Positions 36,368-51,831 of a stretch of DNA of 51,831 nucleotides are shown here, piece after piece; position 1 is the first letter of the stretch, and the number at the start of each line of letters is the position of its first letter. Position numbers and translations under genes: made by a program. The notes beneath the pieces were generated by a model that saw nothing but the letters and a program-made list of their open reading frames with translations, was not told where the DNA came from and did no database searches. Origin of the DNA: a virus (taxonomy: Duplodnaviria > Caudoviricetes); the IMG/VR virus record IMGVR_UViG_3300012200_000007, positions 1-51,831 of that record; one strand, given 5' to 3'.

Positions 36368-38056
36368 TTATGCCGGCAACGCTTTGTATCGGACAATTTT
36401 TCCTTGAGCATCCCGGACAATTTCCCAGTCGTGCAATGCCGCCGGTTCAATCTTCTTCTTGTCCGGATCGCGCGTCGCTTCCTCCTCGGCGGTCGGCAGG
36501 ATCGTTTCCTTGACGCTCATCGTCTGTTTGGCCAGTTGGGCAATCTGCTCTCGCGTCACGCCGAACTCGTCCACCAGCCCGTTGATGAAAGCAGCTTCAA
36601 CCGCTTTCTGTCTAAGCACGTGCCGCCAATCATGGCCCATCTCGGCGCACACGTCCTGATAGGTTCGGATGCCGCCTTCCAATTCTTCCAAAATCGCCTG
36701 GCTGTTCCGGCCGACATCCACCGTCACCGAGCGCGGCGGCCTGACAACGGTATGCCACCATTCACGCGGCGCGCCGTCAAGCTGCCGGTCGAACTTCACC
36801 GCCCATGACATCGTCCACAAATAAATTTCACGCAGAATCGCGGCAATAATGGCGGAACGCGAACGGAAGAACGAAGCGGCAACATCCAGGTCCGCGCGCG
36901 TCACGGTCCCTTGAAGGGAGAACGGCAGGACAAGAAGCGAACTGATTCCGACACCGGCGCATATTTTTCTGACCAGATAATCCCAGTAATCCTTGGTCGC
37001 AACGGATGGCCTGTCGCTCTTGAATTGCTCGAACTTTTCACCGTTCGATACGTAAACGTTTCGCCCGCCCATCGTAGTCTCGTAAAATAGCGGTGGTGTT
37101 TTCACGGTCGGATTTCCAGCCGCATCCTGGCTTTGAATCTGCCAGCGTTGTCTTCGAGAACTTGTGGTTGACGCCTCTCCGGTTTTGTTCGTGATGACGT
37201 TTGCGACTTCCGCCGCCGCTCTTGCGGCTTTGGATTCTAGAAATTGCAGATCATCCAGATCGTGCAAATCGTTCATCACCGGGTAAAGCATCGGCGGGCC
37301 GTGAACCATTCCTGGCCGTGATGGCTCGAACAGGTGCAACATCCGGTCCCCGTCAATCGGCGCCCAAGTCTGTCCTTTTCCGGATGACCACTGGCCTGAA
37401 TAAAACGAAATACTGTCCGTTCGCACCCAGTAACGTTTCGGACGGCCAATCGGTTGGTCGTTCGCGTCAACGTTGAATTCGATCCCGTCAATGATTCCAC
37501 GCCCCTCGCTGCTCCGCATTTCCGGCGGCGTTCCGATCCGGTGCGATTCGATGAGTTGAATTCTTGGTCGCCCGCTATCGGGTGAAAAAGTTTTGTAGAT
37601 GAACGATTCTCCGTCAACCGCCCATGACCGAGCCATCAGACTTTGCACGACACCCATCGCGAGTCCGTTGTCAACGCACGGCCATTTGCACCAATTGTTC
37701 CACCATTGGCTTGCGGCCTGGTTCCAATCCTCCTCATCCGGGCAACTCGGAATGACTTTAAGACCATCGGGCCCGACCGTGTATTGCTCGAAAACGTCAC
37801 AGAGCCGGTTGACGATTGCGTTGTTTGCCTCCCAGTAGCGGGAACGCCGAATCAGTTCCAGACGGGTTGAGCTGTCAAAATCAAACCGGGCATCCTGAAC
37901 GGAAGCGGGCAGCCATGATCGATCAAAGAAATTTGTCGATGCACCCTCGTAACGGGCTTGCGGTGTCTTGCGCTTACGGGCTTTCGTTGGCCGGCGAGCG
38001 GGACGTTTTTTGGCGCGTGGTTTCATTCCGGTGGCAATCTTTTTTTGAAATACCAT
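36368..38056 (-). CDS. lambda-type portal protein (start possibly at 38026)
   Basis: ARYEGA, RSRYWEANN, DGESF, IQLIESHRI, DGIEF, HLFEPSRPGMVHG.P, VDVGR. Confidence 0.9.
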   Translation of the reverse strand: MVFQKKIATGMKPRAKKRPARRPTKARKRKTPQARYEGASTNFFDRSWLPASVQDARFDFDSSTRLELIRRSRYWEANNAIVNRLCDVFEQYTVGPDGLKVIPSCPDEEDWNQAASQWWNNWCKWPCVDNGLAMGVVQSLMARSWAVDGESFIYKTFSPDSGRPRIQLIESHRIGTPPEMRSSEGRGIIDGIEFNVDANDQPIGRPKRYWVRTDSISFYSGQWSSGKGQTWAPIDGDRMLHLFEPSRPGMVHGPPMLYPVMNDLHDLDDLQFLESKAARAAAEVANVITNKTGEASTTSSRRQRWQIQSQDAAGNPTVKTPPLFYETTMGGRNVYVSNGEKFEQFKSDRPSVATKDYWDYLVRKICAGVGISSLLVLPFSLQGTVTRADLDVAASFFRSRSAIIAAILREIYLWTMSWAVKFDRQLDGAPREWWHTVVRPPRSVTVDVGRNSQAILEELEGGIRTYQDVCAEMGHDWRHVLRQKAVEAAFINGLVDEFGVTREQIAQLAKQTMSVKETILPTAEEEATRDPDKKKIEPAALHDWEIVRDAQGKIVRYKALPA

Positions 38057-38135
38057 TCCGTTCCTCGTTCACGAAGAAATTCACGCATCGTTTTAGATCG
38101 TAATTTTTTACGTGGATGTTTCTTGATGCGTTTCA

Positions 38136-38423
38136 TCAAGTGAAAGTGTGTTTTACTGCGCTCTCATTTTTAAGTTCTTCACGCATCACGCGCTCGCCAA
38201 TCTGGTCAGACAATTCCAACATTTTGTCCGCAACCGTAACGGCGTTCTTGCAAAGGTCGTGAAGATGGAAATTAGGATTTGCCCTGAGCGTGGAAGAAAT
38301 GACAGCCAGAGCGTAAGCGTCCCAACGATCTATTTCACGTTGCCGCGCTCTCCGCCGATCTTCATTCACGGCATCGCGAGCATGTAAACGCTCCGCTTCA
38401 ATCATGGCTCCTGGATTTGGCAT
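38136..38423 (-). CDS. hypothetical protein
   Basis: WDAYA...AV.VADKML pattern. Confidence 0.55.
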   Translation of the reverse strand: MPNPGAMIEAERLHARDAVNEDRRRARQREIDRWDAYALAVISSTLRANPNFHLHDLCKNAVTVADKMLELSDQIGERVMREELKNESAVKHTFT

Positions 38424-38424
38424 A

Positions 38425-38871
38425 TCAATACCTCTGGTTCCAGCGGAGCAAAACAAAATCACGCTGCAAACTTGTAACCGTTTGCATTCGGTCATCGCTC
38501 ATCATCACCGACAAAAGCGTCGCGTCATTCGGAGAACTGTTCCCCTGTCCTGCCAGTGTAATAATCGCGTCGTTGTAAACCTCGCGGAATTCCTGCGCCA
38601 TGCCGAACACTTCATCCTCGGAAAACGCCCGCCACACCATCGGCGATGTCCATCGTGTTTCGTGCCCGAGACCGGATGTTTGGAAAAGCGTTTTGCCATC
38701 CTTGACGTTGCCGAAACAATAATGTTGAAACGCTTTCAGCGCATCCTCGAATGTAACAATCGCCGGTCCCTCCGTGTCTCCGGTCAAATCAGCCAGCAAC
38801 GTTTCCGCCTTATACGCGTCATAAAGACTTTGCAGAAACGACCGTTTCAATTCGGCTTTAAGCGCGGCCAT
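38425..38871 (-). CDS. putative head completion protein (gpW position)
   Basis: Between terL and portal. Confidence 0.4.
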   Translation of the reverse strand: MAALKAELKRSFLQSLYDAYKAETLLADLTGDTEGPAIVTFEDALKAFQHYCFGNVKDGKTLFQTSGLGHETRWTSPMVWRAFSEDEVFGMAQEFREVYNDAIITLAGQGNSSPNDATLLSVMMSDDRMQTVTSLQRDFVLLRWNQRY

Positions 38872-38875
38872 GCAA

Positions 38876-39076
38876 TCAACTTTCCGGCCATTGCTGGCGC
38901 ATCCGCAATTCGCGTTCTGCGATTGACGCAATATACCGGACCATCCGTGAATTCAGATCGCGCCGCGCCACATCCAATCCGAGCCGATGCTCGTTGCGTT
39001 CAACTGTTCGGACACTCACCTCCAGAACTTGAGCGAGTTCTTTGCGAGTGATGAAATTGCGTTTCGGAATGTTCAC
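38876..39076 (-). CDS. small HTH (excisionase/MerR-like) DNA-binding protein
   Basis: FITRKELAQVLEVSVRTVER. Confidence 0.7.
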   Translation of the reverse strand: MNIPKRNFITRKELAQVLEVSVRTVERNEHRLGLDVARRDLNSRMVRYIASIAERELRMRQQWPES

Positions 39077-39270
39077 GACGGAAGGATTCGTTTCACCGGC
39101 AAAATCGTTTGTTGCATCGGTTGTGAAACGATGACTGCTTTCGCCGCCGACAGCATCCCGAGCGCGATGATTTTGTTCACCGGAGCATTGACGGTCAGGC
39201 TTCCGTCCATCGCCAGCACGATCACGATTTGCTGCGCGCCGTCACCGTTGGTTTGTGGAAGCGGGTTCAT
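39073..39270 (-). CDS. hypothetical protein
   Basis: Coupled by 4-nt overlaps. Confidence 0.5.
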   Translation of the reverse strand: MNPLPQTNGDGAQQIVIVLAMDGSLTVNAPVNKIIALGMLSAAKAVIVSQPMQQTILPVKRILPS

Positions 39271-39434
39271 TCAGCAAAGGATTGTTCATCTGGCTGTGAA
39301 GTATCGAAATCCAATTCACGCAGAGCCACCAAAATAAGATTTTCCCTTACCCGTTCTTCTTCGGATTTTTTTGCGAGCACCGTTTTCCAATCCGTTCCAG
39401 GCTCGGCGAGACATTCCTTGAGTGTCTTCATCAT
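39267..39434 (-). CDS. hypothetical 55-aa protein
   Basis: MMKTLKECLAEPGTDW..., read manually; ATGA overlap with the next gene. Confidence 0.45.
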   Translation of the reverse strand: MMKTLKECLAEPGTDWKTVLAKKSEEERVRENLILVALRELDFDTSQPDEQSFAE

Positions 39435-39439
39435 AACTG

Positions 39440-39757
39440 TCACAACGTTTCATCCAGCCAAATACCGATCCGATCCCCGAACTGTTTCATTGTCCATTCG
39501 CGGAAATTATGCGCGCCTTCGGATTTGAACGCTTGGGTATCCCGAACCATGCGCAAGTGATTCAGAAAGTTTTTCGTGCTCTCAATGCTGACACCGACAA
39601 TCGGAGGCTCGGACGCCCGGACAAGCTGAGTCGGCAACGTAGCCGAACTTGAAACAGCCGGGCCCAGGACAATCGCGCCAAGTTTCATGTCGGCTGGAGG
39701 AGGATTAGCGGTCAGGGCTTTCGCCATGTTCGGAAGTTTAGCGGGCTTTGATCTCAT
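39440..39757 (-). CDS. hypothetical protein
   Basis: Internal ATG of the 212-aa track ORF; the upstream extension is antisense to the repeat tract. Confidence 0.5.
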   Translation of the reverse strand: MRSKPAKLPNMAKALTANPPPADMKLGAIVLGPAVSSSATLPTQLVRASEPPIVGVSIESTKNFLNHLRMVRDTQAFKSEGAHNFREWTMKQFGDRIGIWLDETL

Positions 39758-39775
39758 TCGCAACGGGCAATTTAG

Positions 39776-39805
39776 TTGACAAACCGGAGGCTTCAAAGGT
39801 AAAAA
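39776..39805 (+). promoter_or_regulatory. putative promoter of the RAMP-like island
   Basis: TTGACA-18-TAAAAA. Confidence 0.4.
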
Positions 39806-39905
39806 CGCGACATCGGTTCTACACCCGATGTCTTCACAACATAAATTTGGCACTCGTTTGCGGGTTGGGTTTGCTTCCCAGCTTTCCCGTGTAGAAATCA
39901 ACAAG

Positions 39906-40000
39906 CGGGTGCTTTGCGTCAAGGCGTGTCTCGGTCTGTCTTGCCGGGGTGGTCTATGGTGGGGCTTTGTTGGACTGGGTATGTCGGGGCGCGGTAAGGT
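39906..40000 (+). ncRNA. NN-GGY pentamer tract 0 (putative guide RNA), 19 units
   Basis: All 19 units end in a pyrimidine; 10 have an exact GGY triplet. Confidence 0.65.
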
Positions 40001-40004
40001 TCCC

Positions 40005-40640
40005 ATGTTAAAAACAAAAACAAATCGGCTCACTGAAATTTCTGGTGAGAGTCCAAGCAACGGCGCGGAAACATTCATAGAAATGCAAAGGCCATATCGG
40101 GTTCAAGTTGAACTCGAAGGTATGTGTCCGATGTTGTTTCACCGATGGAATAACGAAAGCGTGGCGGCAAAGGCACGCGCAAAGAAAGGCAGTGATGAGA
40201 AAAAAACTGACGATACGGAAGCGTTCATGTGGAAAGACGAAAGAGGTTTCGTTTGTATTCCAGGCGAATACGTTCGTCAGTCCATTATTCACGCCAGCAA
40301 ATACGAGCAAGACCCGCGTAGTCCAAGAAAGTCCATGATGGATTTGATGAAGGCTGCGCTCGTTTCGTTGACTGAACTGGCGAATCTCGGAGTCAAGCAA
40401 CCGGACTTTATTGACCAGCGGCGAGTCGTGATTCAACGGTCAGCAATCACGCGCTCTAGGCCAGCAATGCGGACTGGTTGGAAAGCGAAGTTTGTTTTGA
40501 TGGTTAATCTTCCAGAATACGTGCCGCCGCAGAAACTAAATCATCTCATTCAACAAGCGGGTCGGATAATCGGATTGGCGGATTTTCGACCATCGTTCGG
40601 AAGATTTTCAGTCGTAAAATTTGAAGTACTTGGCGATTGA
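40005..40640 (+). CDS. stand-alone Cas7/RAMP-like protein (VIPR-like effector candidate)
   Basis: VELEGMCPMLFH first strand, IPGEYVRQSI..A, D.RRVVI...R.RP...W...F, and C-terminal G-rich loop AGRIIGLADFRPSFGRF. Confidence 0.7.
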   Translation: MLKTKTNRLTEISGESPSNGAETFIEMQRPYRVQVELEGMCPMLFHRWNNESVAAKARAKKGSDEKKTDDTEAFMWKDERGFVCIPGEYVRQSIIHASKYEQDPRSPRKSMMDLMKAALVSLTELANLGVKQPDFIDQRRVVIQRSAITRSRPAMRTGWKAKFVLMVNLPEYVPPQKLNHLIQQAGRIIGLADFRPSFGRFSVVKFEVLGD

Positions 40641-40645
40641 TTTAC

Positions 40646-40947
40646 GGGGTCGGGCAGGTTTCGGTCATCTTAGGTGTGGTTGGCCAAACTCCGGTTGTGC
40701 CTGTTTCGGTTTGCTTTGGTCGTGTATGGTTTGTTCTTCGCTCTGGTTTTGTATGGACAGGTGCGCCGATGTAAGTTGAGTTGATGTGGGCTGAGTCCTG
40801 ATCCGGTCAGGCTGGGTTGAGCCTGCTTTGTAATGGACAGGCGAGCTATGGTTCGGGCCAGAAATGGCCGGTGATGTTTGGTAAGGCGAGCCACGTTCCG
40901 GTCAGCTTTGATTGGCCGGGGAGTGCTATGGTCAGGTGAGTTTTGGT
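40646..40947 (+). ncRNA. NN-GGY pentamer tracts 1-3 (putative guide array): 40646-40735, 40743-~40857, ~40863-40947
   Basis: 5-nt period with one register shift near 40736-40742; the variable dinucleotides decode to terL-like peptides. Confidence 0.7.
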
Positions 40948-42812
40948 GCCGGTGCGGGCGATGAGTCCGTGCCGGTTTTTTCTTCAACTAGGTCTTCACC
41001 TGCACCGGCCATCTCGAACCACAACGCCAGATATGCAGCGCACATATACAAATGATCCGCAGCTTTTTCCGATGCCTTTTTCCAACGCAGTTCAATTTGA
41101 TTCGTCGCCGGAACGCGATAAGATTCCAAACTCCACGGCAAAAAATGCGCTTTGAAATCTTCGGACACATCCGCGGGAACCTCATATGTTACATCCTTTC
41201 TAGCACGCAAATGAGCCAAGGCATCCATCGCGCCTGACTGGGAAAAATTCCAAAATTCCGGTTCCTCATTTGGATTTTCTTTGGTCGGTCCTTGCTGCCC
41301 AGGAGCTCGCGGCCAGAGTGGTTCCGGTTCCGACCATGCCCGTTTAACCCCATCCTCGTGAGTAAACAACCTTTCACCGCCCCCTTTAGCGCCATGAATT
41401 TTGATCGCATTGAAGCCGTGTTTGAGACAGAAAAAATAAACGTATCGGTCCTCGCCGAGCCATGAAGCGTCAACCGCAACGCAAATCGGTCGAACAGAAT
41501 GTCTCCGCAACACGTCCAACACTTCACCTTCTGATTCCATCTTTCCCTCCCACACTATCAGACAATTTCCAGATTGATCGCAATCTTGAATGATTCCCCA
41601 AAAATGACTTACTTCATTCAGTTCCTTTCGGCCCGTCTGATAATCCAAAACCGCCAGTCTCCATTTCCTGTCAGGCAATCCTTTACGGTCCTTTTTCCGG
41701 CCTGACAAAACAATCGGCGCCGATTCGGGAATGCGGTCATCGGTCCCGATGAACTGGCACTCGCGTTCCCGTAAATAATTCAACCATGGCAACGGATTAC
41801 CCATGCGGCGCGCGCGCAGCGCCACGTGTTTTTGCCGGATCAAATCCATCCACGAAATGTAATCCACGGATACCGATTCCAACGCGAAACTTTTCCAGCC
41901 GGCCTGCGCGCGTTTGTTCCGAGGTTCTCCGTATCGGCCCGACATAGAAAGTTTCCGGCGTTCGCGCACATCATCGTGAACCAGATAACCGCACGGCATT
42001 TGATAGCGGATCTGTATCTTTGAGTAATCCGGTTCATCGCCTTCTTTACGGTCCCCAAGCTCGTAGCGCAAACCTCCCAGGTGCGGATATTCCTTTTCCC
42101 AGCGCGTTCGCATCACGTGAAACTGCCGGCAACCCGGACACTGAACCTCCCAATGTTGCTGCGTGCCCGACATGAACGCCTGGTGCAATTGATCCCCTTT
42201 CCGGCCGGCGTTGCTGATGTTGAAAACGACGCTGTTCCAAAACGCGGTCGTGCGTCCATAGGCTTGTTCCAATCTTCCAGGAATCCAATTGTCGGCATCG
42301 TGCAGTTCCTCGTTCACCTGCCCGCGAATCGTATCACCCGTCACGCTCCGCTCGGTACTGATTCCCTGAACGATGAAATTAAGGTGCGGAAAAATAACCA
42401 ACCCGTTCGTCCACGCGAACCTGTCAGCCGATGTCCTGGCCATCACCGGAGCGCACGCCAGCAACTTTTTCTCGATGTGCTTTTTCCAGCGCGAATCGGC
42501 GTGCAGATCATTCGGCCAATTGTATTGCACGTCACCGCTCGACCAGTTCGCCAGCCAGAACAGAATCACAATTTCTCCGACCGAAGTTCCACCAGCCTGA
42601 ATCGGTTTGATGAACGTCATCCGCCGTGTCCCGTCGTTCCCGCACTCAATCGGCTCGCGCGTCCAAGGAGTTATGTTCGCGCGAAACTGTTCAGACCTTG
42701 CGGACCCGACCAGTTTAACGTTGGTTTCGGCCCAGTCCACGACCGAAGCCGGCGCGGACTTCGGCACGGCCTCGACCATCTGAGAGAACAGCCATTGCGA
42801 AGCGGCGCTCAC
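40932..42812 (-). CDS. terL: terminase large subunit (lambda GpA-like)
   Basis: DWAE..V.L, TPW.REP, KPIQAGGT, RTTAF, CPGC, nuclease-domain LDYQ...HFW, DHLYMC. Confidence 0.88.
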   Translation of the reverse strand: MSAASQWLFSQMVEAVPKSAPASVVDWAETNVKLVGSARSEQFRANITPWTREPIECGNDGTRRMTFIKPIQAGGTSVGEIVILFWLANWSSGDVQYNWPNDLHADSRWKKHIEKKLLACAPVMARTSADRFAWTNGLVIFPHLNFIVQGISTERSVTGDTIRGQVNEELHDADNWIPGRLEQAYGRTTAFWNSVVFNISNAGRKGDQLHQAFMSGTQQHWEVQCPGCRQFHVMRTRWEKEYPHLGGLRYELGDRKEGDEPDYSKIQIRYQMPCGYLVHDDVRERRKLSMSGRYGEPRNKRAQAGWKSFALESVSVDYISWMDLIRQKHVALRARRMGNPLPWLNYLRERECQFIGTDDRIPESAPIVLSGRKKDRKGLPDRKWRLAVLDYQTGRKELNEVSHFWGIIQDCDQSGNCLIVWEGKMESEGEVLDVLRRHSVRPICVAVDASWLGEDRYVYFFCLKHGFNAIKIHGAKGGGERLFTHEDGVKRAWSEPEPLWPRAPGQQGPTKENPNEEPEFWNFSQSGAMDALAHLRARKDVTYEVPADVSEDFKAHFLPWSLESYRVPATNQIELRWKKASEKAADHLYMCAAYLALWFEMAGAGEDLVEEKTGTDSSPAPAPKLT

Positions 42813-43129
42813 GATTCCGAAGTCTGAACGCTGACAATTGCGTTTCCGATTTTGATTTTTTCCTCGGTCGATTCGATAATCTCATTTGCCTTGTCGAGCG
42901 CTGTCTTGACTGCTTCAGGATCGTTCTTGTCCGCACAAATGTTCGCCGCCACGCATCGCAACGCCAAAGCGTAATAGAGTTGTTTCCAATCCGGTTCGCG
43001 CGGCGTGAACGGTTCCAGTTTGCCAATCGGTAACGGGTTTTTATATGCCTCCGCAATTATTCGATCTGCATGTTGTTCCGGTGTCATCTCGCATCCTTCG
43101 CCTCTCCGTTCCTGGCCAGCAATGACCAT
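42809..43129 (-). CDS. hypothetical protein
   Basis: Between terS and terL; likely start MTPEQ. Confidence 0.5.
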   Translation of the reverse strand: MVIAGQERRGEGCEMTPEQHADRIIAEAYKNPLPIGKLEPFTPREPDWKQLYYALALRCVAANICADKNDPEAVKTALDKANEIIESTEEKIKIGNAIVSVQTSES

Positions 43130-43797
43130 TCGCTCAACAGATGGTTCTTCATTTCGTCGTCGCTCTTAACCAGCTCGTGTTGAATTTGAACCGCGTTCAA
43201 TCCTTCAAGGGCAGGCGGCAAGTCCACGTTGCTACGCTGGTCGAGCATCCGAAAGAAACCCGCCAGCCCGCGCTTGATCGTCTGCGATGCTTCCGATTTT
43301 TCAATCCACATTCCGTCCTCCTGCTCGAATCTGCGCTTCTCCCGCAGCGCGGAAAACTTGCTCTGCATCTCGGTCCAGTTTTCTCCGCGCGATTCAAACA
43401 TGACCTGCAACAATGTCTCCAATGAAATCCGGTTGTCACCACCAGGTCCGAGCAACTTCACTTTGCGCGCCTGCGTGATGACGTCCACCGGAATCCCGGT
43501 CATCGCGGAGCACTGCGCCGCGTTGTCGTAAGTCGGCAGTTTGTCGGCCCGCGAATTGAAATACTTGATAATTCCGAGCAATGCCGGTCCGAGCTGGTAT
43601 CGGCCTTTCACCGTCGCCGCTACGAATCCCTCCCGAACCGCCTGCATGATCCGGCCCTGCGGAACTCCAGTAAGCACGATCAGTTGCGGAAGCGACCGCA
43701 ACCCGGTATCAGAATTGTTTTCCTGCGGTTTGTCCGATTCCGACGCCGGTTTTGAACCAGCTTTACGTGGCGATTTCCGTGCCGGTTTGCGTGCCAT
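43084..43797 (-). CDS. terminase small subunit candidate
   Basis: Two HTH-like segments, then coiled coil and LPPALEGL; upstream of terL. Confidence 0.65.
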   Translation of the reverse strand: MARKPARKSPRKAGSKPASESDKPQENNSDTGLRSLPQLIVLTGVPQGRIMQAVREGFVAATVKGRYQLGPALLGIIKYFNSRADKLPTYDNAAQCSAMTGIPVDVITQARKVKLLGPGGDNRISLETLLQVMFESRGENWTEMQSKFSALREKRRFEQEDGMWIEKSEASQTIKRGLAGFFRMLDQRSNVDLPPALEGLNAVQIQHELVKSDDEMKNHLLSEWSLLARNGEAKDAR

Positions 43798-44103
43798 CCG
43801 CTAACGTTATACTGCCCATTTCGACTTTTCGGAAGCGCATAAACTCACCTCGCAAGTCCACGACCTGTCGGCCGCTGCCACAGGAAAATAGATTCCTTTC
43901 AAAAATATTAGAAGCTGACACCACCGCGCAGGAGCGCCCAAATTTGTGCGCCAATTGACTTGAGACGCGTTTGTTCATTTGAATCGGTTCAATGTTGCGA
44001 CCACTTGTCCGGCTTCAGGCGCGTTTTGTTTCCGGCCGCTGTTCTGAGCCGGTTTGGGCTTTGGAACGCGCTGGGGATTGGCTGGCGGGCGCACAATAGG
44101 GTT

Positions 44104-44637
44104 TTAACGTGACTTTGAATCGGCGGCAAGACTGAACAGATCGTGGTATTGGACGCGATAGGCGAACGGACGAAATATCACGATGGCGGCAGCGAATGGC
44201 CAACTTTGCCCGTTTGAACCTTTGATTCGGCCTTTAAGAAAACGCACTTCGCCTCGTGCAGCATAATCATGCCACCAGTTCACATCCACGCGGGCAGGCA
44301 CGAGACACACAACGAGCGCGCCGCGTTTGCTTTCCTCGAATGCCTTTTTCATCCAGCGTGGCAATTCAGGGCCATACGGAGGATTCATAAACACACGTTC
44401 CATGTTCCAATCCTGTTTCAATCCGTCCTCTTTTGCCGTGTAGAATTTGCGGCACTTCGCCGTCATTGGAACGCAACATGGATCAAGCGTGAAACCGAAT
44501 TCCAGATTGAGCGCATCGAAAACGTATTGCGGAGTCGGCCATGCCATGTCCGCCGAAGAATGAAGCACCCTGCGATTGTGCTCCCGGTCAGAATCAGTTT
44601 CAGATTCAAGACTAAGAACATGGATCGTTTCGCTCAT
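44104..44637 (-). CDS. phage N6-adenine DNA methyltransferase
   Basis: W.TP...FTLDPC...DGL..DW...VFMNPPYG...LVPAR.D..WW...RFLKGRI. Confidence 0.9.
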   Translation of the reverse strand: MSETIHVLSLESETDSDREHNRRVLHSSADMAWPTPQYVFDALNLEFGFTLDPCCVPMTAKCRKFYTAKEDGLKQDWNMERVFMNPPYGPELPRWMKKAFEESKRGALVVCLVPARVDVNWWHDYAARGEVRFLKGRIKGSNGQSWPFAAAIVIFRPFAYRVQYHDLFSLAADSKSR

Positions 44638-45164
44638 TGATTGAATGCCCAATGTTTGCCATGCAGAACATTGTAGATCGTTCCATTGCTCACTCCGAAC
44701 CGTTTTGCTAACGCCTTTTGCGACAGTCCAGGATACAGACTTCTGATTTCCTTCGCTATCGCATTGTCTAGGACAGCTAAATAATGGTTTCTACCGCGCT
44801 TCAATTTTTCGGGATGCGTCCTCGACCCGCTGCGGTCCCCCCTTGCGGTGTTGCCATCTTTTTCCCTGTCCGCCGCGTTATCAGCATCGGTGCCAGTAGC
44901 AAGATGCTGCGGATTGCAGCATATTCTGTTTCCGCAAACAAAGTGACGCACCAACAAGTCTCCAGGGTCTCCGTTCGTTAAAATCCATGCAACACGATGA
45001 GCGTGCAAACTTATGTGACTGTTGATTCCTCGTCGATATTTGAATACTCCGTATCCGTCAGCATCAGTCTGCGCTGTCCACGGCCAACATTGATCCAGAT
45101 TATTACGTAGTACTTTCTCCCAAAACCGATCACTCTGATTCCTTACAGGTCTGCCAGTTCTCAT
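44634..45164 (-). CDS. HNH homing endonuclease
   Basis: RFWEKV, CWPW, GYG, AHRVAW, CGNRICCNPQHL, C-terminal HTH. Confidence 0.9.
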   Translation of the reverse strand: MRTGRPVRNQSDRFWEKVLRNNLDQCWPWTAQTDADGYGVFKYRRGINSHISLHAHRVAWILTNGDPGDLLVRHFVCGNRICCNPQHLATGTDADNAADREKDGNTARGDRSGSRTHPEKLKRGRNHYLAVLDNAIAKEIRSLYPGLSQKALAKRFGVSNGTIYNVLHGKHWAFNQ

Positions 45165-50587: not shown

Positions 50588-50909
50588 AAACTTGGCGTTC
50601 CATCATTGCGAACCAATCAAACTCGCGCACTCGGCCAATCTCCCAAATACCCGCTGCCAACGTAATCGATTTGTGTTCCTCATGTTGAACTGTTGCCTGT
50701 CTTGTGAGATTCAAAATCATCCGATCTCCAATGCGAATTAGTTCTGCATCGTCATCCTCGATAACGTGCGAGTGACCCGATTCGCCATGCGCCAGAACAA
50801 GTCTCTTGCGCCCTATAATTGTCACCGTTCCATCCGGCATTGATTGCAACCGACGACCGACCACGTCCCCTTGTTGGAAAGTTTTATTTGCTGTTTTGTT
50901 TTTCTTCAT
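50580..50909 (-). CDS. His-rich partner protein typically found beside DUF6745 genes
   Basis: QQGDV...LAHGESGHSH...HEEH..I.L..G.W....REFD. Confidence 0.7.
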   Translation of the reverse strand: MKKNKTANKTFQQGDVVGRRLQSMPDGTVTIIGRKRLVLAHGESGHSHVIEDDDAELIRIGDRMILNLTRQATVQHEEHKSITLAAGIWEIGRVREFDWFAMMERQVCD

Positions 50910-51831
50910 GTGAGTATTTCCGCATTTATTTGCCAGTTGTTATTTCGCCAGTTAAGAGCTTTTTCTACCGTGTCACATTCCGCGGGGATTCCTTCGAGAT
51001 GCCAGCAACCGACTGACGGATTCAACATTCTAAGATAACGCGCATCATTGACTTGTTCGGATAGCTTCACTTTAAGAACTTCGTAAGTTCCTCGTTTCTC
51101 TAAAACTTTGTGTTCCAGCTTGTCCAGCATCCGCTCAATACCGATCTTGCGCAGTAACTCCCGTCGCACATCGACATTAGTTTCTTGCAAGACAATCTCA
51201 GGCTTCAATTGTTCCGCTGGAGTCAATACGTAATCAGCCTTCATTCGGATTCCGTTCAGCGCATACACTCCCCATCCATCCGAATATTCAACCGATGGAG
51301 CGCCGTCCTTATGAAGCCTGCCAGCATTATTCCTATGAATCGAGATTGGTTTCTCTCCAATGAATGCAAGTTTCCAAAACAAAACACTCCAACCAGCCGA
51401 CAAACACAATGCTTCATTACCGTCCAATTTACTGGTGTCTTGATCCAGTTCCATTCGCATAAAATCGTAAAACGACAACCAATAAGCAATGAACTGTCCG
51501 AAATCGTAATACCAATAAACGGAAGCGCTCACGGAAGCGTGCACGGAAGCGCTCACGGAATCGCTCACGGAATCGCGCACGGAATCGCGCACGGAAGCGC
51601 TCACGGAAGCGCTCACGGAATCGCTCACGGAATCGCGCACGGAATCGCGCACGGAATCGCGCACGGAATCGCGCACGGAAGCGCTCACGGAATCGCTCAC
51701 GGAATCGCGCACGGAATCGCGCACGGAAGCGCGCACGGAATCGCGCACGGAAGCGTGCACGGAATCGCTCACGGAAGCGCTCACGGAATCGCTCACGGAA
51801 TCGCTCACGGAATCGCTCACGGAATCGCGCA
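50906..51831 (-). CDS. C-terminal part of the DUF6745-like protein with a tetrapeptide repeat
   Basis: GQF...WLSFYDF, GRLH.DG.P..EY.DGW..YALNG, E.N...RR, NPS...H.E.IP. Confidence 0.8.
   Translation of the reverse strand, partial: RDSVSDSVSDSVSDSVSASVSDSVHASVRDSVRASVRDSVRDSVSDSVSASVRDSVRDSVRDSVRDSVSDSVSASVSASVRDSVRDSVSDSVSASVHASVSASVYWYYDFGQFIAYWLSFYDFMRMELDQDTSKLDGNEALCLSAGWSVLFWKLAFIGEKPISIHRNNAGRLHKDGAPSVEYSDGWGVYALNGIRMKADYVLTPAEQLKPEIVLQETNVDVRRELLRKIGIERMLDKLEHKVLEKRGTYEVLKVKLSEQVNDARYLRMLNPSVGCWHLEGIPAECDTVEKALNWRNNNWQINAEILT
51521..51831. repeat. ~26 copies of a 12-nt unit encoding S-V-(S/R/H)-(D/A)
   Basis: Read directly from the sequence. Confidence 0.9.

Follow-up and report, generated by a model that had tools for sequence, protein, structure and literature searches.

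Genomic context of the vipr gene

The window, meaning the whole stretch of DNA analyzed here (51,831 bases; G000), is an entire virus record estimated by CheckV to be 68% complete. Pfam and PHROG scans place a lambda-type head module in it, with a portal gene (36368-38056) and a large terminase gene (terL) of the gpA type (Pfam GpA_ATPase, E 2.5e-14), and a plus-strand cassette sits between terL and the next gene. The central gene of this cassette, vipr, encodes a RAMP protein (Table 1). A search with a profile of 108 homologs gave SUSP1 Vipr (PDB 36pp_D) with E 1.4e-10, and none of the four other matches listed fell below E 0.2; the model of the protein (pLDDT 86; a single-sequence fold with pLDDT 35.8 was left unused) has Cas7/Csm3 as its best Foldseek matches (TM about 0.45-0.54); and D193, R195 and R152 align, in an alignment read by eye against the SUSP1 structural report, to the G-loop Asp/Arg and the thumb Arg of that protein. 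By profile, fold and alignment, the locus is a VIPR system. As for an accessory vap gene, no other plus-strand ORF of at least 80 aa was found in the vipr-terL interval or in the leader.

None of the terL-family loci checked (59 that include the C-terminus and 57 that extend 1.5 kb or more downstream, with some contigs counted twice) carries vipr, and the cassette thus looks like an insertion. Among these loci, the taxon labels are one Verrucomicrobiota and one Saccharibacteria. In annotated phage genomes no close terL was found (8 records, best 24% identity), and none of the sequencing runs listed is an RNA run carrying the window sequence. Elsewhere in the record, genes for a Dam-type methyltransferase and an HNH endonuclease (44104-45164) lie directly upstream of the packaging genes. 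Related 12-nt tandem arrays occupy both ends of the record (1-88, 7.3 copies; 51519-51828, 25.8 copies, the latter inside an ORF at 50906-51820 with DUF6745), and the genome is possibly a circle that was opened within this repeat.

Architecture of the array

Four pentamer tracts flank vipr, and the best period-5 sites of the plus strand all lie beside the gene; among related loci, vipr is flanked by pentamer tracts in 82/83 (opposite strand, 24/83). The scaffold is degenerate, the 15 core units of tract 2 having G at position 1 in 12/15 and a pyrimidine at position 3 in 13/15, and a strict GGY in 4/15. The 22 units of the tract 2 module are closed by a conserved GNRA hairpin (the hairpin proper, 40856-40869), which is also present in the arrays of 13/15 of the closest Vipr loci (at least 60% identity). 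Over 83 Vipr loci, 37 such hairpins were observed against 13.4 expected, their usual context being GGTTC-G-stem-GNRA-stem-GGT. Related Vipr arrays commonly have 20-50 units from one separator to the next, and a long run with several targets therefore seems usual for this clade.

Table 1. Positions in the window of the features of the vipr cassette and of the corresponding terL site.
Feature	Position	Strand	Evidence
Structured leader upstream of tract U and vipr	39849..39913	+	Fold z -2.78
Tract U, GGY/NN pentamer run, putative vrRNA	39908..40002	+	Pentamer scan
vipr gene, 211 aa RAMP protein	40005..40640	+	Homolog profile, model, Foldseek, phrog_4652
Tract A, 18 pentamers, common to relatives	40648..40737	+	Pentamer scan, relatives' contigs
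2-nt phase slip, 5' edge of the tract 2 module	40738..40739	+	Phase parse
Tract 2, 5' reading, 12 units, match to LLIQAENDEGDL of AAA_25 helicase	40740..40799	+	Viral and genome scans, Pfam
Units GG GA CT common to both readings	40785..40799	+	G-D-L in helicase, G-E-L in terL
Tract 2, 3' reading, 13 units, match to GELPHWWLLIQDI of gpA-type terL of related phages	40785..40849	+	Homolog alignment
Separator of tracts 2 and 3, GGTTC-G, then 5-bp stem with GAAA tetraloop	40850..40869	+	Fold
Tract 3, 15 units, same terL codons in closer relatives	40870..40944	+	Protein-level fit
Intrinsic-terminator-like hairpin and T run, array end	40948..40984	+	z -4.5, 0/200 shuffles
Own terL counterpart of the target site, KELNEVSHFWGIIQDC	41580..41627	-	Inside terL (40932-42812)

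In the leader, the fold of 39845-39920 was equaled in stability by 2/200 shuffles; stems resembling it by eye precede vipr in L055-L057, and the leader shows indel variants in run X3, which diverges from the window after 39916, within tract U. No Rfam family matched the leader at gathering level, two weak matches below the gathering score being rejected, and no sigma-70-like promoter was found. Tract U is strongly self-folding (39890-40010, z -3.2) and extends into the start of vipr. Regarding its target, no match above shuffles was obtained in the collected loci, and one 12-unit pattern had matches in 0/301 genomes. At the other end of the array, the terminator hairpin overlaps the final terL codons (SSPAPAPKLT end) on the opposite strand.

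The terL reading of tract 2

A preliminary description of this DNA had read 15 dinucleotides from 40773, in a 5-nt register, as a terL motif belonging to a more distant phage. Both the dinucleotides and their gapless alignment to K396-D410 of the own terL (41627-41583, minus strand) were reproduced, with 8/15 dinucleotides and 19/30 nt identical. This own-terL site is the top window site of tract 2 at a 1-nt skip, yet its 19/30 is no better than shuffles, the best of which reach 19.0 ± 0.7 (p 0.74, 300 shuffles). The terL reading is significant only against homologs, not against the own terL alone. A metagenome scan with the back-translated motif, two of its codons being left free, returned four loci, 4/4 of them terL homologs; the free codons were LL in 3/4 and exactly CT TT in one. 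The terL of L064, 55.7% identical to the own protein over 488 aa, matches tract 2 at 13/15 dinucleotides, 12 of them consecutive, and at 27/30 nt, a match that is only partly independent because the search pattern was built from tract 2 itself; the corresponding null best is 20.4 ± 0.6, with a maximum of 22 (40 shuffles), and the match appears only under skip 1, skips 0, 2 and 3 giving at most 20/30. Thus tract 2 does correspond to a terL motif of more distant phages, and the proviso that no terminase homolog might carry a compatible sequence is contradicted by the GELPHWWLLIQD alleles of L064, L062 and L065.

The extent of the motif needed correction. Read as terL throughout, the first three units (AA GA GA) fit at only 7, 9 and 4 of 39 sites; these "K E E/D" units belong mainly to the helicase discussed below, where 119/120, 118/120 and 36/120 homologs have N, D and E/D, respectively. 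The gapped-pattern check that had been proposed, with the exact 15-unit terL reading, gave 0 matches in viral contigs, since those three units belong to the helicase reading, and an exact 10-unit terL pattern (20 bases) also gave 0 matches in viral contigs. Restricted to 13 units, the terL reading scores 25/26 in L064, 24/26 in L062 and L065, 23/26 in L001 and 15/26 (58%) in the own terL, and, independently of the pattern used in the metagenome scan, tract 2 has the modal dinucleotide of the family at 5/7 departures from the own terL (39 distinct sites, 50 loci). All terL matches are in codon register. Extension of the reading 5' to 40743 or 3' past 40849 was rejected, as these flanks, which are the helicase reading and the separator, misfit terL; reversed orientation and skips 0, 2 and 3 yielded nothing above chance. 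No other array with this terL guide turned up when one was searched for (0 matches).

Two putative guides on one terL block

The target lies just after the Asp of LAVLDYQ, invariant in 32/32 aligned homologs, which we take to be the likely catalytic Asp of the terL nuclease domain. The target block holds 7 of the 42 invariant columns of the alignment within 21 residues, in a homolog set that was selected on this very region. The target site itself varies among the 32 homologous proteins, and the own terL has Ser where 29/32 aligned homologs have Pro, a Ser also found in P0002.

Tract 3 meets the own terL at the same codons with 23/30 nt (77%, p 0.003), its best site in the window. At the protein level only, its residues are compatible at 15/15, 14/15 and 13/15 positions with P0004, P0003 and P0002, which are the nearest relatives and 72-80% identical across this region, and tract 3 matches L002 at 25/30 nt. 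The convergence of tracts 2 and 3 on one conserved terL block, as first described, holds, with common codons and 8/14 aligned dinucleotides in common (6/14 units, or 10 nt, differ). So tract 3 would cover near and tract 2 far alleles of one block, and from the comparison of alleles we infer that the own one would escape the guides. At a threshold of at least 80%, no self-target was found in the record, which is 68% complete: the own terL stays at the 58% and 77% given above, and the best window site of the helicase reading at 17/24.

Two origins had been proposed for this convergence, namely a targeting hotspot or the duplication and diversification of one guide. Neutral tandem duplication of tract 3, suggested as a possible full explanation of the similarity, is unlikely: when 10 nt of tract 3 were changed at random, 0/100,000 trials attained 27/28, and 73/100,000 did so when the same positions were changed. 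Among 37 sites found without a tract-derived pattern the best score was 24/28, reached by 1/100,000 trials with random positions and 4,137/100,000 with the same positions randomized. The scaffolds of the two tracts are identical in register at 23/42 bases against 22.8 when shuffled, and their triplets at 1/14 positions against 1.5 expected. These comparisons leave no trace of a recent duplication between tracts 2 and 3, whose scaffolds show no sign of common descent. The hotspot fits better than neutral duplication, but it is supported within this array only, none of the 194 tracts of 83 other Vipr loci having a terL-site guide at 22/26 or better, in a comparison that is weak in that those loci carry no terL of this family. 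The duplication signal, for its part, is found within tract 2, as a four-unit repeat 80 nt apart, and not between tracts 2 and 3.

The helicase reading of tract 2

The preliminary description missed a second reading, in which the 5' 12 units of tract 2 match a helicase gene. This match was first noticed by a sliding scan of the tracts, outside terL, in the related phage L001, with a score (22/26) that was also reached by 2/194 shuffled tracts. The L001 gene encodes a RepA-like DnaB-N plus AAA_25 helicase (Pfam). The 12 units from 40740 read LLIQAENDEGDL, with 22/24 nt identical to L001, in coding-strand sense and with the skip on the third codon base. L001 is thereby matched by both parts of tract 2, the helicase reading at 22/24 and the terL reading at the 23/26 already mentioned.

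In viral contigs, an 11-unit gapped pattern with one base relaxed had 15 exact matches, 15/15 of them in this helicase family and in codon register, scoring 22-23/24 nt over 10 distinct sites, and the match ends after the unit at 40799. In bacterial genomes, 7/401 of the phylum Verrucomicrobiota match with at most 2 mismatches (reversed control, 0); 8/8 sites fall in the helicase, in codon register throughout, and one of them is 24/24, this best site adjoining a phage-type DNA polymerase. The commonest base has a frequency of 0.90 at the first, 0.98 at the second and 0.65 at the third codon position of 21 helicase sites. The three units common to both readings have a background unit-frequency product of 2.6e-4. 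By hmmsearch, no AAA_25 helicase was found in the window, a record that is 68% complete. Since terL homologs occur in 2/301 genomes at the level of the order and helicase sites in the 7/401 of the phylum, a Verrucomicrobiota host is proposed, and the target phages likely infect Verrucomicrobiota.

Origin of the overlap and exchange of modules

Within tract 2, the units CT TT AT CA recur 80 nt apart, and both protein motifs contain LLIQ. A four-unit repeat of this kind arises in 550/100,000 shuffles and in 1/97 stretches of related arrays. Both copies use TT at the second Leu, as do 3/21 helicase sites, and in both GGA precedes CA, as in 16/133 related units; plain duplication of the last 16 units (40770-40849) would give 10/12 helicase units. 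Taken together, these features favor a shared ancestry of both halves, through duplication in register (in either direction) followed by retuning, over independent guides, an argument drawn from one locus.

On the other side of the module, contigs X3 and X4, from two other studies (depth 2.5 and 3.3), agree with the window across vipr and tract A. Past 40737 both turn to one and the same different pentamer run, which locates a module boundary precisely where tract 2 starts. Contigs X1 and X2 match the window without a single difference and are possibly its source, so they were not counted as independent. The arrays at L056:6879-7310 and L057:10624-11140 contain common guide modules in different order and copy number, an in-register shuffling.

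Further candidate targets

A 10-unit core of tract A matches, in antisense, a Multi_ubiq plus Prok-E2_E fusion gene (L180-L195): among 9 full-length homologs, 4 are matched at 19/20 nt, 3 at 18/20 and 2 at 16/20, and the first scan with this tract gave 4 matches against 7 control matches. The next ORF in L183 resembles JAB-E1 by eye, which corresponds to the type I Bub operon layout (PMC11601596). A Ubl-E2 (Bub-like) host gene as the target of tract A is a lead only; such a fixed host target would fit, because tract A is kept in relatives. Besides, guides in two other VIPR arrays (L083:10149-10230 and L138:3119-3200) match vipr genes, one of them the vipr of the window (from 40197, 23/26 nt). 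The VIPR papers report guides directed against vipr.

Comparison with known systems

According to the two SUSP1 reports, each Vipr subunit takes one pentamer, its NN reads DNA while the third base is skipped, and transcription is repressed (10.64898/2026.04.26.720920; 10.64898/2026.04.26.720927). The window resembles these VIPR systems (10.64898/2026.04.26.720920) in its small RAMP gene with one upstream and several downstream GGY/NN runs, in the 1-nt skip on the wobble base, in having its targets in other phages and in the lack of self-targets at 80% or above. It differs in having no vap, which is typical there without being stated as universal, in splitting its guides by a short GNRA hairpin where the described systems have a 40-nt pseudoknot tail, in a more degenerate scaffold with one 22-unit run that holds two overlapping readings, and in its candidate targets, a terminase and a helicase here against satellite recombinases, lysogeny regulators and vipr there. 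Like the staggered VIPR arrays, as far as a figure legend describes them (10.64898/2026.04.26.720920, fig. S18), it has tightly packed guides with a phase slip at the boundary, whereas the overlap of processed RNAs is 1 nt in those arrays and three whole units (15 nt), in the same phase, in tract 2.

A further parallel is found in SUSP1 vrRNA4, directed at the recombinase of the F5 satellite, which is reported to match the first two bases of each codon in a conserved motif that is likely catalytic (10.64898/2026.10.15.759431), so that escape needs an amino-acid change. That guide has been tested by infection, in contrast with the predicted targets presented here, where two guides would split near and far alleles. 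In the literature examined, with its limited coverage of subscription journals, overlapping dual-target vrRNAs, GNRA separators and a mechanism of guide birth are unreported; the text of the supplement of 10.64898/2026.04.26.720920 has 0 mentions of terminase, helicase or tetraloop, and its data S3 may list such targets.

With class 1 CRISPR, the likeness lies in the RAMP fold of Cas7/Csm3, at the TM values given above. A CRISPR repeat search of 38000-44000 and a tandem scan were both negative, the search for a contiguous spacer match (skip 0) gave nothing above chance, and none of the 20 proteins scanned is a cas operon gene. One Cas4-like PHROG match falls on an exonuclease distant from the locus. 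TIGR-Tas, whose units are 36 nt long, was dropped given the array period of 5.

Proposed mechanism and alternative explanations

The module is, on the matches described above, a real VIPR guide module; the preliminary description was right on terL and on the convergence with tract 3, and missed the helicase overlap. In our analysis, tract 2 is best explained as a two-target VIPR module, Vipr likely silencing the helicase and terL of other phages, an explanation that we regard as probable with considerable room for doubt. By extension from SUSP1, Vipr would coat the RNA with one subunit per pentamer, the NN pairs would invade double-stranded DNA with every third base skipped, and transcription of the target gene would be blocked. 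The RNA, having the sense of the coding strand of both targets, would pair with the template strands, and the targets would be silenced in co-infecting or resident phages. The terL part of tract 2 and tract 3 would be separately selected guides for distant and close alleles of a block that is hard to mutate, the own allele falling below the 80% match used to call targets (10.64898/2026.04.26.720920). The overlap would have arisen by in-register recombination or by an 80-nt duplication, followed by the retuning of a few dinucleotides.

The chief doubt, in our assessment, concerns the reading of the 5' half, given 3'-first engagement and the length of 22 units. In the SUSP1 structural report the subunits are resolved beginning at the tail and proceeding 3' to 5' (10.64898/2026.04.26.720927), and vrRNA guides are reported at 9-16 units (10.64898/2026.04.26.720920). 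Without an internal cut in the RNA, reading of the 5' helicase half may therefore be poor. It is thus conceivable, and in our view unlikely though a serious contender, that only the 3' terL half guides and that the helicase half, though it looks intact, is a silent remnant of a guide that was older or inserted separately, joined to it at three units by recombination, which would agree with the 3'-first engagement of the SUSP1 structures, with a tract exceeding the typical vrRNA length and with the module swapping seen at the 40737 breakpoint. However, sites that exist today are still matched by the helicase half at 22-24/24, and the runs of 20-50 units between separators in related arrays show that such length is common. 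Alternatively, one match might be a coincidence, in that a 16-unit terL guide, partly duplicated in tandem, happens to resemble the helicase motif. This has in its favor the 10/12 helicase units that duplication of 40770-40849 alone would produce, besides the post hoc nature of a helicase match whose first score was also attained by shuffled tracts. It appears very improbable, since the two units that depart from the plain duplicate are those that the helicase needs (A 92/120, E 119/120), and the matches of the follow-up scans all belong to a single gene family (15/15 and 8/8), include a site at 24/24 and have no counterpart in the control.

Other explanations concern the relation of tract 2 with tract 3 and with the own terL. 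The terL part of tract 2 and tract 3 might come from one guide that was duplicated and then diversified under selection on two terL clades, an origin to which the 8/14 common dinucleotides, the same codons, the adjacency and the single phase of the two tracts would lend themselves. We consider it quite unlikely: the common units are mostly conserved codons of the family, the scaffold triplets agree no more often than expected, and the purely neutral form, very unlikely in itself, reached the observed score in the 0 and 73 of 100,000 trials reported above; an old duplication whose scaffold has since been erased is nonetheless conceivable. Finally, the array might regulate the own terL through weak self-targeting or through antisense overlap at the terL 3' end, as the own gene is the best window site of tract 3 (23/30) and the array ends within the last terL codons. 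This is barely credible, with tract 2 matching the own terL at only 15/26, both guides fitting alleles of other phages far better, and no self-targets of at least 80% being reported for VIPR (10.64898/2026.04.26.720920).

Returning to the two-target module, a broader reading can be formulated in which a compound vrRNA would silence two essential genes of one rival phage via overlapping registers, the guide having been born without spacer acquisition, by an 80-nt duplication and tuning, with modules swapped, and tract A being aimed at host Bub. One cassette would then act against rival phages and against host defence. Taken jointly, this is a tentative proposal that is more doubtful than probable.

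Significance

The making and change of guides are not addressed in the text of the VIPR report (10.64898/2026.04.26.720920), and the locus offers a testable case, with its common units, its internal repeat and its mapped swap point. If one RNA serves two sites, target prediction needs sliding windows and not whole tracts, and a single small protein could work with multiplexed guides; should just one half be functional, the locus would be a new VIPR case of the ordinary sort, its targets well supported. A division of the alleles of one terL block between two guides, the own rare allele escaping both, would amount to kin discrimination between related phages.
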